Source: an uncultured Anaerolineaceae bacterium (GTDB lineage: Bacteria > Chloroflexota > Dehalococcoidia > Tepidiformales > Tepidiformaceae). Taken from it: a DNA stretch of 64,000 bases. The position numbers were made by a program, and so were the translations under genes. The stretch covers positions 1 to 64,000 of the forward strand of contig CAZDUX010000011.1 in NCBI GenBank assembly GCA_964508715.1. Reading direction: 5' to 3'. A model generated the notes under the pieces. The model worked only from the letters and a program-made list of their open reading frames with translations, searched no databases and was not told the DNA's origin. This document shows positions 58,150-61,368 of this stretch, piece by piece (the first letter of the stretch is position 1; each line of letters opens with the position of its first letter).

Positions 58150-58746
58150 TTCTTCACCTCTGGCGCGACTGTAGGAAGGGTTGGAGCGAGCGGCAAGTCC
58201 GCGTGGCCCCTGAGCTGTAGCCATTCGTGCATGCGCGGGGAGAGCCAGACGCGGCATACTGGATAACAACAGCGCGACGGGGGAACGATAATGACCGCGC
58301 GAACCATCCACATTCGTCACGATGGCGACACCTGAGCGACCTGGACGAACAATGATGACCTCGATCGGCATTCGACGCGGACCGGGGCGCTCCAGTCGGC
58401 ACTACTGTGGGCGTTCGTCTACCGGCCGGCATCGGTTGTGCTCGAGACGGCTGAGGGGCACGAACTCATACAGTATTACCCGGACAGGAGCATCGACCCG
58501 GCACGCATTGCCGGGTCAATCCCGCCGGAATACTACTGAGCGGGCGGCGGCCCGCCCGCCAAAATGGTATCTCGGATCCGATCTGGATTCGTGCTATCGT
58601 AGAGATAACCCCACGAGCTTCGGTGGCCATTTGCGCCCAGGCTGCGAGCTTCGCGCCGGGCAGCGGAGGGTTCGAGCAGCGCGTGAACCAGTTCGCCCTG
58701 CGAATGCCGGCTCGAGACGGTGTTCGTACCAGCCACAGGAGTTGTT

Positions 58747-58968
58747 ATGCCCGCCAAGGCCGATGCCATTGAAGTAGAAGGAACAGTAACCCAGGCGCTG
58801 CCCAACGCCGTCTTCCGGGTCGAGCTCGGAAACGGCCACCTCGTCCTCGCCCATATCAGCGGCAAGATGCGCAAGCACTATATCAAGGTACTCCCCGGCG
58901 ACCGCGTGCTCGTCGAGCTTTCGCCTTACGACCTCACCCGCGGACGGCTCACCTACCGCTTCAAGTAG
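58747..58968 (+). CDS. infA: translation initiation factor IF-1
   Basis: [73 protein letters not shown]. Confidence 0.92.
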
Positions 58969-59189
58969 CAAACCAGCAGGGCGCGGGCTTCACTGCTCCC
59001 GGCCACGCGATAGCGTTTCTCCGTCCGCCAGGCCGCCTCGCGTCGCGTCGCGCTCAACGGCCCAACTGGCGATGGGATAGCGGGTCGCATCTCTCCCATT
59101 TCTGCGGATCCCCGGGGCCCGAGCTCTCTCTTCAGCCTTGCCAGCTACTGGCCGATGCTCCTACCATAGCGAAACACCCGCGAACGTGG

Positions 59190-59306
59190 CCGCGCTTATC
59201 AAGAGTGGGCAGAGGGATCCGGCCCTGCGAAGCCCCGGCAACCTGCCACCATCGGGCAAGGTGCCAACTCCGGTCTCCCGTCGCGGCGGGAGGAAGATGA
59301 GAGCGA
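59190..59306 (+). promoter_or_regulatory. SAM-I (S-box) riboswitch
   Basis: CUUAUCAAGAGUGGGCAGAGGGAUCCGGCCCUGCGAAGCCCCGGCAACC...GGUGCCAACUCC...GGAAGAUGAGAGCG aligns nearly base-for-base with the B. subtilis yitJ S-box core; P1 halves CUUAUC/GAUGAG. Confidence 0.88.
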
Positions 59307-59494
59307 CTCCGCTCCCCACCATTACGGCCCACGCGGAAACGAGGAGTACCAGGATGCCGTCCTCATTGGGCCGTATGGTCATGCGCTAGCCCCTCGCCGA
59401 AGGGGCTTCCCGCTATCCACCCCCGATCCGCACCGATTTTGCGCGTGCCCTGCCGCACCCGCCATCCCGTGCCCATCGAACGCGGAGCATGACC

Positions 59495-60748
59495 ATGTCC
59501 TATGCAACTGCCCTTCGCTGTCGCGAATGTCATCGCGAATACCCACTCGCCGCACAGCATGTCTGCGAGTTCTGTTTCGGCCCCGTCGAAGTCACCTACG
59601 ACTACGACGCTATCCGCCAGGGAGTCACGCGCGAGCGTATCCAGGCCGGCCCGGCCAGCCTCTGGCGGTACCGCGATTTTCTCCCGGTCGACCCCGACGC
59701 CGCCATCGACATCGGCGCCGGCTTCACCCCGCTCGTTCGTGCGCGAAACCTCGGCAAGGCGCTCGGCCTGAACAACCTCTACATCAAGAACGACACGGTG
59801 AACCCAACCTGGTCGTTCAAGGACCGTGTGGTTGCGGTGGCCGCGAGCCGCGCCCGCGAGCTTGGATTCGAGAAACTGGCCTGCGCGAGCACGGGCAACC
59901 TGGCCAACAGCGTCAGCGCCCACGCCGCCGCCGCCGGGATGGAGGCCGTTGTCTTCATCCCCCACGACCTCGAGGCCGGCAAGGTCGTCGGTTCGGCCAT
60001 CTACAATCCGACACTCGTCAAGGTTCGCGGCAACTACGACGCGGTGAACCGGCTCTGCGCGGAGCTCTCTTCCACCTATCCCTGGGCGTTCGTGAACGTG
60101 AACGTGCGGCCCTACTACAGCGAAGGCTCGAAGACGCTCGGGTTCGAGGTCGCCGAGCAGCTTGGCTGGCGGGCGCCGGACCACTGTGTCGTCCCAATCG
60201 CCAGCGGTTCGCTCTTCGTGAAGATCAAGAAGGGGTTCGAAGAGCTGGCGAAGGCGGGCCTCATCGAGCCAACGAAGACGCGCATGAGCGGCGCGCAGGC
60301 CACCGGCTGTTCGCCGGTTGCTACCGCGTGGGAGGAGGGTTCGATGAACTTCCGGCCCCAGCGCCCCGACACCATCGCCAAGTCGCTCGCCATTGGCAAC
60401 CCGGCCGACGGCTACTACTCGCTCGTCCAGCTGCGCGATACGGGCGGCGCCTGCGGCAACGTGAGCGACCCCGAGATCGTGGCCGGGATGAAGCTCCTTG
60501 CCGAGACCGAGGGCATCTTCGCCGAAACTGCCGGCGGCGTGACCGTTGCCTCGCTCAAACAGCTTGCCGAACAGGGTAGAATTGGGCCCGACGAGGTGAC
60601 GGTGGCGTTCATCACCGGGGCCGGCTTCAAGACCATCGAGGCCGTCACCGGGGCGCTCGAGCCCCCGCTCGAGATCGACGCCACCGTCAGCAGCTTCGAG
60701 CACGCCTTCGAGGCGCGCGGCGCGGCTGCACTCGTGGGTGCGAACTAA
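59495..60748 (+). CDS. threonine synthase homologue (PLP fold-type II) with N-terminal C4 zinc ribbon; candidate MetM-like homocysteine synthase
   Basis: CRECH...CEFC zinc ribbon; NPTWSFKDR PLP-Lys motif, CASTGN, IGNPA, TGAGFK as in ThrC; start chosen at second ATG, 7 nt after GGAG. Confidence 0.85.
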   Translation: MSYATALRCRECHREYPLAAQHVCEFCFGPVEVTYDYDAIRQGVTRERIQAGPASLWRYRDFLPVDPDAAIDIGAGFTPLVRARNLGKALGLNNLYIKNDTVNPTWSFKDRVVAVAASRARELGFEKLACASTGNLANSVSAHAAAAGMEAVVFIPHDLEAGKVVGSAIYNPTLVKVRGNYDAVNRLCAELSSTYPWAFVNVNVRPYYSEGSKTLGFEVAEQLGWRAPDHCVVPIASGSLFVKIKKGFEELAKAGLIEPTKTRMSGAQATGCSPVATAWEEGSMNFRPQRPDTIAKSLAIGNPADGYYSLVQLRDTGGACGNVSDPEIVAGMKLLAETEGIFAETAGGVTVASLKQLAEQGRIGPDEVTVAFITGAGFKTIEAVTGALEPPLEIDATVSSFEHAFEARGAAALVGAN

Positions 60749-61014
60749 TGCCCGAACGGAGTGGCCCATCCATGGCGACCAATCGCGTCCGCTTCACCTT
60801 TCCCGAAGAGCAGATCAAGGAACCGGTGATCTACCGCATCGGCCATGAATTCAACGTCATCACGAACGTCCGCATGGCCGACGTCGATGAGCAGACCGGC
60901 TGGGTGCTGCTCGAAATCGAAGGCGAACCCGCCGAAATCCAGCGCGCCATCGCCTGGGCGCAGGAACATGGCGTTCGCGTCGACCCCGTGGCCGGCGACA
61001 TGGTCGAGGGTTAG
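60748..61014 (+). CDS. stand-alone NIL-domain protein (MetN C-terminal-like ferredoxin-fold domain)
   Basis: TAATG coupling to upstream gene; AIAWAQEHGVRVDPV resembles MetN C2/NIL domain (AIAWLQEH.V.VE). Confidence 0.6.
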   Translation: MPERSGPSMATNRVRFTFPEEQIKEPVIYRIGHEFNVITNVRMADVDEQTGWVLLEIEGEPAEIQRAIAWAQEHGVRVDPVAGDMVEG

Positions 61015-61068: not shown

Positions 61069-61368
61069 TTGCAACTCCGGAGGACTTCCGTGCCCGTTAC
61101 TGTCCGTATCCCGCAGCCCCTTCGCAACCTGACCGGCAACCAGCCGACCGTGCCCGCCGGTGGCGACACCCTCGCCGCCTGCATCACCGACCTCGAAGCG
61201 AAGTACCCCGGCTTCCGTGAGCGGATGATGGATGACGGCGGCCAGCTTCGCCGCTTTGTCAACGTTTATGTCAATGGCGACGATGTGCGCTTCATCGATG
61301 GCCTCGCCACGGCGCTCAAGGATGGCGACGAGGTCAGCATCGTGCCGGCGGTTGCGGGCGGAGCGTAG
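61069..61368 (+). CDS. MoaD/ThiS-family sulfur carrier-like protein (C-terminus ...AVAGGA)
   Basis: About 93-99 aa beta-grasp pattern (VNGDDV..DG..T.LKDGDEVSIVPAVAGG); probable GTG start at 61090 after GGAGGA RBS. Confidence 0.65.
   Translation: MQLRRTSVPVTVRIPQPLRNLTGNQPTVPAGGDTLAACITDLEAKYPGFRERMMDDGGQLRRFVNVYVNGDDVRFIDGLATALKDGDEVSIVPAVAGGA

Follow-up and report, generated by a model that had tools for sequence, protein, structure and literature searches.

A SAM-I aptamer and a conserved leader with a probable upstream open reading frame precede a predicted metM-NIL-thiS operon in Tepidiformales

In the S-box leaders of Bacillus subtilis yitJ and metI, a full aptamer comprising helices P1-P4 is followed by an expression platform in which the 3' strand of P1 is shared with a competing helix, the classical antiterminator design. 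The leader considered here resembles them in both respects. It lies on the forward strand of a 64,000-nt stretch of DNA (hereafter the window; positions 1 to 64,000 of contig CAZDUX010000011.1, assembly GCA_964508715.1) from an uncultured Anaerolineaceae bacterium, which GTDB places in the Tepidiformaceae of the Chloroflexota, and it carries a complete SAM-I (S-box) aptamer, a hairpin (H1) in the role of the competing helix and, further downstream, a gene for a ThrC homologue of the MetM type. As in methionine-pathway S-box operons, a switch turned off by S-adenosylmethionine (SAM) is expected here. However, in comparison with the yitJ/metI type, the platform of the window is devoid of a U-tract terminator, and the strand that P1 closure sets free would have its target about 170 nt off; added to this are a conserved upstream open reading frame (uORF), a helix that clamps around the aptamer and a hairpin directly at the stop codon of the uORF, for none of which the Rfam search gave a match. 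The leader very probably functions as a SAM-I OFF switch for the metM operon, and the best overall explanation of its platform, for and against which the scales seem to us about level, would be translational SAM-OFF masking combined with uORF-dependent unmasking of metM.

The closest system with respect to the genes is that of Streptomyces albulus, in which the ThrC homologue MetM and the sulfur carrier MetO convert O-phosphohomoserine to homocysteine, according to papers citing Hasebe et al. (2024, Appl Environ Microbiol 90:e01247-24). One of these citing papers reports a SAM riboswitch 5' of S. albulus metM. The window is alike in that a ThrC-like and a ThiS-like gene stand behind a SAM riboswitch, and the same pairing of SAM-I with metM-thiS recurs in Actinomycetota loci of the present set, among which S. 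albulus is not included. The Actinomycetota leaders differ in that they have 0-91 nt between the aptamer and the start codon and no uORF, while the Chloroflexota operon has an additional gene encoding a NIL-domain protein.

With respect to the uORF, the nearest relatives are the B12 riboswitch leaders of ppe2 and metE in Mycobacterium tuberculosis, in which a short translated ORF modulates the downstream gene; the ppe2 uORF is an obligatory relay, operating by termination-reinitiation at an overlapping AUGA (PMC11260477). The window differs from them in its ligand and aptamer class; its uORF stops 105 nt upstream of the metM start, and the proposed link would be the unmasking of RNA. In ermC and cat, in trpL and hisL and in mgtA-mgtL of Salmonella, a short leader ORF has its regulatory codons in the RNA strand that masks a downstream signal, so that a ribosome delayed there would keep the strand open, and the Mg2+ leader of mgtA is an experimentally shown case of interplay between a riboswitch and a uORF. 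Compared with these leader-peptide attenuators, the uORF of the window has just two internal Met codons and no evident terminator/antiterminator pair, and it is joined to a SAM aptamer. Neither a SAM-I platform with a conserved uORF nor a Met-codon leader peptide was found reported in the literature searched; to our knowledge, no Met-codon leader peptide is known, nor any SAM riboswitch coupled to a sensing uORF. The aptamer and its link to the MetM/MetO pathway are known biology, and the platform is the new part.

The aptamer and the promoter-like site upstream of it are situated as follows:
59138 to 59167, plus strand: promoter-like site, TTGCCA and TACCAT with an 18-nt spacer (consensus scan)
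59193 to 59303, plus strand: SAM-I aptamer, RF00162, with the P1, P1-extension and pseudoknot pairings given below

The aptamer is an ordinary member of RF00162. A cmscan search of the whole 64-kb window against Rfam 15 returned it as the single match, at 59193-59303 on the plus strand, with 79.9 bits against a gathering score of 44.4 (E 3.4e-17) and untruncated over model positions 1-108 of 108. A repeated, permissive scan of 59100-59560 gave RF00162 with E 2.4e-19 and no credible second RNA family in the platform at E<=10. All four helices, P1-P4, are paired in the cmscan alignment, and nearly every upper-case consensus position is matched. P1 is formed by 59193-200 with 59296-303 and is prolonged by a 2-bp extension, 59191-92 with 59304-05, which is canonical in all 59 relatives (GC in 59; CG in 57 and UG in 2); the same relatives show compensatory changes in P2, P3 and P4. 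A candidate for the pseudoknot between the P2 loop and J3-4 is found at the expected positions, at the level of sequence complementarity, in CCGG 59219-22 and CCGG 59270-73. An earlier note, made from the letters of this DNA, had placed a SAM-I riboswitch at 59190-59306, quoted consensus blocks for it and proposed an Rfam covariance search. The riboswitch is borne out by the significant RF00162 match of that search, its coordinates bracket the aptamer together with the 2-bp P1 extension, and the quoted blocks (CUUAUCAAGAG, GGCAGAGGGA, GGCCC, GAAGCCC, GGCAACC, GGUGCCAA and GAUGAGAG) are all found in the sequence. Situated between a conserved promoter-like site and metM-NIL-thiS, the aptamer occupies the 5' leader of a methionine-metabolism operon. 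The -10 box (TACCAT, TACTAT or TAGCAT) is aligned in all related loci, and thus the RNA probably starts at about 59174.

The comparisons draw on related loci numbered L001-L200: 80 loci for synteny, 59 leaders for alignment and pairing, and 65 non-redundant leaders for the uORF; in addition, a metagenome scan with the uORF/H3 signature yielded at least 120 loci. The genes downstream of the leader are the following:
59482 to 59497, plus strand: metM translation initiation region, with the Shine-Dalgarno (SD) sequence GGAG at 59484-87 and ATG at 59495-97
59495 to 60748, plus strand: metM-type ThrC homologue, a pyridoxal phosphate enzyme (PF00291, 1.9e-67; NF006050, 303 bits)
60748 to 61014, plus strand: NIL-domain protein of 88 aa (PF09383, 1.2e-16), its start overlapping the metM stop
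61069 to 61368, plus strand: ThiS/MoaD-family protein of 99 aa, a MetO-like sulfur carrier (PF02597, 1.5e-19; NF041918/TIGR01687)

The ThrC homologue noticed earlier downstream of the aptamer is real: NCBIfam threonine-synthase models match the ORF, and the PALP domain is present (1.9e-67). The protein has about 50 additional N-terminal residues bearing CxxC...CxxC, and its alignment to solved threonine synthases begins at about residue 50; in the PDB, only canonical threonine synthases were found. Its best protein relatives belong to metagenome-assembled genomes (MAGs) of Chloroflexota, Dehalococcoidia and Tepidiformales, with at most 92% identity, and an identical protein is present in a database entry named "threonine synthase [Dehalococcoidia bacterium]". 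Cyanobacterial homologues, whose group includes the ThrC of Microcystis aeruginosa, are 64-65% identical to the window protein; the M. aeruginosa ThrC is reported by the citing paper as 51.6% identical to MetM. MetM is commonly misannotated as threonine synthase (GapMind preprint). Since all names returned by a large protein search were "threonine synthase", orthology to S. albulus MetM stays indirect.

A ThrC-like gene followed by a ThiS-like gene is found in 78 of the 80 related loci, those of Actinomycetota and cyanobacteria included; the two loci without ThiS, L033 and L035, end early downstream of metM. In almost every Chloroflexota locus, metM and thiS are separated by a NIL gene (none was detected in L066); in the loci of Actinomycetota and cyanobacteria no NIL gene separates them, L060 having only a weak NIL-like match about 2.5 kb downstream. 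Elsewhere, the NIL domain is found as the C-terminus of MetN, which binds methionine, and it is also known from the DUF39 homocysteine pathway. The ThiS/MoaD-like protein ends in ...VAGGA, one residue beyond Gly-Gly, so trimming of its C-terminus would be needed before thiocarboxylation; a Mec-type hydrolase step, which fits such trimming, is listed for the pathway in the GapMind preprint, though its wording says N terminus. The operon metM-NIL-thiS(metO) is a predicted thiocarboxylate-dependent homocysteine synthase system, in which the enzymatic conversion would be that described for MetM and MetO. The earlier note had regarded the association of the aptamer with a threonine-synthase-like gene as unusual, a view that does not hold: the gene encodes a predicted MetM-type homocysteine synthase accompanied by a ThiS-like carrier, and because the operon would serve methionine biosynthesis, a SAM riboswitch is expected there and no odd link to threonine arises.

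The start codon of metM is relevant to all pairings discussed below. The ATG at 59495 lies 7 nt 3' of GGAG 59484-87, is the same start as in all relatives (MS[FY]A..LRCRECHRE) and agrees with a 417-aa database entry. The mechanically called ORF and a 419-aa entry begin at the ATG at 59489, which is just 1 nt 3' of the SD and belongs to the 10-nt perfect complement of the uORF end. The true start is almost certainly the ATG at 59495, as judged from these sequence features, and 59489 is unlikely; the annotation would be corrected from "threonine synthase" to a MetM-type homocysteine synthase starting at 59495.

The distance from the aptamer to the consensus metM start is 191 nt in the window and about 170-240 nt, and conserved, in L001-L034. 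Most of the platform within it, namely the uORF, hairpins H1, H2 and H3, helix B and the pairing of the uORF end with metM, had been missed in the earlier note. Its elements, together with the upstream strand of helix B, are:
59178 to 59192, plus strand: helix B, 5' strand, CCGCG-AAC-GUGGCCG; alternatively a small local hairpin P0 (CCGC/GUGG)
59301 to 59314, plus strand: hairpin H1, GAGCG-ACUC-CGCUC, -6.2 kcal/mol
59306 to 59324, plus strand: strand X, CUCC-rich, with the candidate anti-SD CUCCGC at 59307-12; freed on P1 closure
59325 to 59337, plus strand: helix B, 3' strand, CGGCCCAC-GCGG; alternatively (59325-31) the 5' arm of H2
59341 to 59346, plus strand: uORF SD, GAGGAG, 7 nt before the ATG at 59354
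59354 to 59389, plus strand: uORF of 11 codons, MPSSLGRMVMR, with the stop TAG at 59387-89
59367 to 59373, plus strand: 3' arm of H2, UGGGCCG, which runs from the last part of uORF codon 5 through the Gly codon (codon 6) into the Arg codon (codon 7), of which it takes two bases
59375 to 59384, plus strand: strand U (AUGGUCAUGC), reverse-complementary at every position to GCAUGACCAU (59487-96) at the metM start; candidate helix H5
59388 to 59407, plus strand: hairpin H3, AGCCCCU-CGCCGA-AGGGGCU, -12.3 kcal/mol, beginning within the uORF stop codon
59409 to 59480, plus strand: variable C-rich, G-poor spacer, 36 C and 14 G in 72 nt

The conservation of the uORF is seen above all in its frame. An SD core (GGAG, with GAGG or GGGA as fallback) precedes an in-frame start by 5-10 nt in 65 of 65 leaders, and the SD-proximal ATG (60 leaders) or GTG (5 leaders) is in frame with TAG in every one of them. 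Variants of 10 codons occur in L031, L034, L102, L145 and L200, the indels preserving the frame, and in L031 and L034 the SD and the start are displaced together by one codon. The consensus reads MVSxxGRM[VCLFAGI]M[LRPH] followed by the stop; both internal AUGs, at 59375-77 and 59381-83 in the window, and the TAG are invariant, while the intervening and final codons vary. The pattern is probably that of a translated ORF. However, fixation is also evident at the nucleotide level, as GGGCCG is constant, with Gly always encoded by GGC and the third position of the Arg codon variable, and the final sense codon stands for unrelated amino acids (L, R, P, H) in different leaders. These observations lead to an alternative, in which the uORF would be untranslated and 59325-59407 would act as a purely RNA-level switch, the choice between helix B and H2 setting the freedom of strand U, with ATG, SD and TAG as by-products. 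It would account for the fixed Gly-Arg codons, for a last codon that tracks the pairing with the metM region, for the competition of B and H2 for one strand and for the complementarity of the second AUG to the CAUG of metM. The spacing of the SD core, the ATG-to-GTG swaps and the joint one-codon shift in L031 and L034, on the other hand, are typical of a translated ORF; the helices do not require the in-frame length changes, which arose independently at least four times, and the first invariant AUG is not accounted for by pairing in most relatives. We consider an untranslated uORF very unlikely.

Two mutually exclusive choices appear to be built into the RNA. The first concerns H1, with canonical letters at each of its five pairs in 55-59 of the 59 leaders. 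The 5' arm of H1 is the outer 3' strand of P1 and its extension, and therefore H1 and full-length P1 exclude each other by strand exchange; the upstream P1 strand in relatives is CGCUC, identical in its letters to the 3' arm of H1. In constrained folding, blocking P1 yields H1 with 3.8 of its 5 bp, and enforcing P1 abolishes it. The second choice concerns helix B, which encloses the whole aptamer and rivals H2 for one strand. The window duplex of helix B (59178-92 with 59325-37) has -19.0 kcal/mol as calculated with RNAduplex, and the mean over 59 leaders is -17.3 kcal/mol compared with -11.1 +/- 0.4 for shuffled sequences; compensatory changes are found in three lineages, L083/L189 (G-C to A-U), L119 and L031/L034. 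H2 (59325-31 with 59367-73) is predicted by RNAalifold and places the SD and AUG of the uORF inside a loop of about 35 nt.

The platform could reach metM through two strands, U and X. The H5 duplex between strand U and the metM start has -19.3 to -23 kcal/mol in the window, and the pairing of the uORF 3' end to the metM initiation region amounts to -14.2 kcal/mol across 59 leaders, covering -4 to +3 relative to the metM AUG. Cognate combinations are stronger than non-cognate ones, with 0 of 10000 permutations reaching the observed value and 10 of 10000 for 39 representatives (<85% identity), tests which account only partly for shared ancestry. About 5 bp between the uORF end and the metM AUG are predicted regardless of the state of the aptamer.

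Strand X carries CUCCGC (59307-12), complementary to GCGGAG (59482-87) at the metM SD. The earlier note had proposed that a CUCC stretch could sequester this SD, which would make the control translational, and the part of the proposal that stands is the complementarity itself, together with its realization in the window, where the minimum free energy (MFE) structure with the aptamer closed pairs UCCGC 59308-12 with GCGGA 59482-86, and its excess over shuffled sequences. Over 59 leaders, X pairs with positions -13 to -2 of metM at -11.4 kcal/mol against -9.3 +/- 0.3 for shuffled sequences (z about -6), and the metM initiation region is the best target of X in 26 of 59 leaders against 11.6 +/- 2.4. 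Cognate partners have no advantage over non-cognate ones. As a conserved element, the exact CUCC was rejected: it sits in the loop and arm of H1 and is replaced in many relatives, e.g., by CAGC. Strand X was likewise rejected as an anti-SD for the uORF, since cognate pairs are slightly worse than non-cognate ones, though weakly better than shuffles. The predicted pairing between X and the metM region rises from 0.8 bp to 2.4 bp once P1 is enforced, because H1 can no longer hold X.

These data would also fit a plain long-range SD-sequestering SAM-I switch, in which SAM closes P1, H1 melts and X reaches the metM SD some 170 nt further 3', the hairpins merely bring the strands close, and the uORF is irrelevant or tunes mRNA stability. 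The closed-aptamer MFE structure, the performance of X beyond composition at the metM region and as its best site in 26 leaders, the threefold rise of its pairing with P1 enforced and a complementarity of 10-15 bp between X and the SD in L010, L016, L033 and L018 all speak for it. Nonetheless, the SD and start of the uORF and its frame, kept in all 65 leaders, would go unexplained, as would the invariance of the Met codons and the co-varying pairing of the uORF end with metM; moreover, X:SD has no cognate advantage, and the predicted accessibility of the SD is unchanged. A switch of this plain kind seems to us rather unlikely.

The segment between the uORF and metM contains H3 and the spacer. 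H3 is found in all uORF-bearing leaders, with compensatory GCCCUUCC/GGAAGGGC variants; it was judged from the aligned leaders, RNAalifold and a comparison of the modules, and not from MAFFT column counts, which are unreliable here because loop lengths vary. H3 is followed by no U-tract, either in the window, where UUCCCG stands instead, or in the aligned leaders. The earlier note saw no obvious intrinsic terminator downstream of the aptamer, and in agreement with this a scan for a hairpin plus U-tract between aptamer and gene was negative, H3 not being called. As a canonical terminator, H3 was ruled out by the missing U-tract and the negative scan; no conserved antiterminator partner was found for it. 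The spacer has a conserved bias and no conserved sequence, with a mean of 42% C and 29% G across leaders and more C than G in 54 of 59, in contrast to the plus strand of the window, which is G-rich overall. It looks like a Rho loading site as far as composition can indicate.

Control that is mainly transcriptional would make use of these elements: H3 would be a U-less intrinsic terminator, or Rho would act on 59409-80, with SAM, uORF translation or both deciding the outcome (cf. tnaC, mgtL and pyrBI). H3 is indeed a conserved GC hairpin of 7-8 bp with compensatory changes, a ribosome at the uORF stop would by geometry necessarily melt it, and the spacer has its excess of C over G both across the leaders and in the window. 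Furthermore, L035, a Chloroflexota MAG of 76% identity, has SAM-I followed by a canonical terminator, CCGCAUGCA-GU-UGCAUCGCGG, and then UCUUUUCGUUUG (L035:2774-3010); termination is thus in use nearby. Against transcriptional control, the hairpin is without a U-tract in the aligned leaders and without a conserved antiterminator, and the terminator scan of the window is negative. The uORF ends 5' of the C-rich tract, and therefore a ribosome would shield little of it. We regard mainly transcriptional control as improbable, on a par with plain SD sequestration.

The 5' arm of the L035 terminator contains GGC CGC AUG (G-R-M) in a possible ORF, MEGRMQLH..., reminiscent of the GRM core in the uORF of Tepidiformales; it may represent an evolutionary intermediate.

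Translational SAM-OFF masking with uORF-dependent unmasking could operate in the following manner. The SAM-I switch in the leader would shut the metM-NIL-thiS operon when SAM is plentiful; with no terminator, the 191-nt platform would act on the metM ribosome-binding region at two points. Without SAM, H1 (59301-14) would take the outer 3' strand of P1 and lock strand X; with SAM, the full P1 and its 2-bp extension would form, H1 would melt, and X would be free for the metM SD and spacer (59482-87). The metM start would be masked by default through the last uORF codons (59375-84 with 59487-96), and ribosomes on the uORF would unwind this masking helix, leading to the transient exposure of the metM start. 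Helix B would clamp the aptamer and compete with H2, which encloses the ribosome-binding site of the uORF, and Rho at the C-rich spacer may additionally shorten the untranslated leader or metM RNA. This specific model of two-point masking and unmasking is put forward tentatively, and we think it more apt to be revised than upheld in its details.

Since both invariant Met codons lie within the masking strand, slow decoding of Met would prolong the exposure of metM, much as in attenuation of the ermC type, and methionine supply would be the second input. The leader would then be a two-input device at one ribosome-binding site, combining an anti-SD released by SAM-I with a Met-codon uORF kept open by scarce Met-tRNA, a reading that we find appealing and doubtful. 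The platform could in this way join a metabolite sensor (SAM) with a translation-based sensor (Met-tRNA), and if the two-input reading is true, it would provide the first known Met-codon leader peptide and the first known coupling of a SAM riboswitch to a sensing uORF. Two invariant Met codons with one variable codon between them are few in comparison with known attenuators, and one of the two is also accounted for by base pairing.

Several results weigh against masking and unmasking as set out here, in addition to the shared ancestry that limits the permutation tests. Pairing with the palindromic CAUG at the start of metM could by itself keep the second invariant AUG fixed, with no sensing of Met involved. 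H1, H2 and most of H3 are nearly invariant, and therefore offer little covariation evidence. X:SD shows no co-variation, cognate partners being no better than others (p about 0.15-0.2), and roughly half of the relatives lack the CUCC motif. The X:SD and U:AUG helices would cross in pseudoknot fashion and share the letters GAGC, and they may thus act as alternatives instead of together. Constrained folding was performed in two ways, with the downstream part alone and with the whole leader, taken from its transcription start, under an enforced or a blocked P1, and neither setup gave a clean ON/OFF change at either ribosome-binding site. Folding with and without P1, which the earlier note had suggested as a means of seeing the metM SD sequestered, hardly altered the overall accessibility of the metM SD and AUG, the unpaired fraction of the initiation region being 0.29 with P1 closed and 0.32 with P1 open; at the SD and AUG of the uORF, thermodynamic prediction gave no control by ligand state, with unpaired fractions of 0.55 with P1 enforced and 0.50 with P1 blocked. 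Nor could B and H2 be assigned to a ligand state by constrained folding. Additionally, a blind all-against-all covariation scan of 59 leaders and the metM start block recovered only P2-P4 and purine/pyrimidine noise; the downstream part varies too little for long-range pairs to be recoverable in this way.

The distribution of the leader is narrower than that of the aptamer. SAM-I stands upstream of the metM homologue in 34 of 34 testable close relatives (Rfam; L001-L035 minus L017, for which upstream DNA is missing) and in 11 loci further removed, 10 of them from Actinomycetota and one, L037, from a MAG labelled Burkholderiales, with spacers of 0-91 nt from aptamer to start in these 11. An Rfam scan found no SAM-I upstream of metM homologues in the cyanobacterial loci and in the Chloroflexota loci of about 60-71% identity. 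In contrast, the platform is conserved in about 65 Tepidiformales-like leaders among the matches listed, and metM follows in every listed leader with enough downstream sequence. Among the 200 loci listed, the module of uORF and H3 was found only behind SAM-I and before metM; the three exceptions, L099, L109 and L155, have H3 and just 3-113 nt of contig upstream of the motif. About 45 of the metagenome matches listed have H3, SAM-I motifs and metM downstream, the remainder being chance matches in coding DNA: no uORF with H3 in another context was found among them, as listed matches without SAM-I motifs were also without H3.

If the proposed platform operates, it would show SAM-I wired through a translated mini-ORF and long-range helices, not through a terminator or an adjacent anti-SD. 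A conserved set of about 65 such leaders would also call for caution against sorting platforms only as terminator or SD-sequestering. One metagenome contig with this leader, whose uORF reads MVEFLGRMVML followed by a stop, encodes a MetM identical to the one annotated in the cultured Tepidiforma bonchosmolovskayae; the model is therefore testable.

Other arrangements of the same aptamer and gene were met among the related loci. In L050 and L052, which are actinobacterial MAGs, the metM SD GAGGAG directly overlaps the 3' strand of P1 (GAUGAGGAG), and no translational SAM-I design for metM could be more compact. L148 (WBZR01005202.1) and L192 are exactly identical to the window over the roughly 50 nt of the uORF/H3 segment shown, L148 further over about 260 nt of the leader, and both are probably from the same population as the window. 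On the same strand of the window, infA, encoding translation initiation factor IF-1, is located at 58720-58968 and ends 225 nt upstream of the aptamer; since a conserved promoter-like site belongs to the riboswitch itself, its transcription would not require read-through from infA, though such read-through is possible. In L040, a Synechococcus MAG in which no SAM riboswitch is present at the corresponding site, a 6S RNA gene (RF00013, 54.3 bits; L040:2516-2715) lies just upstream of the metM homologue.

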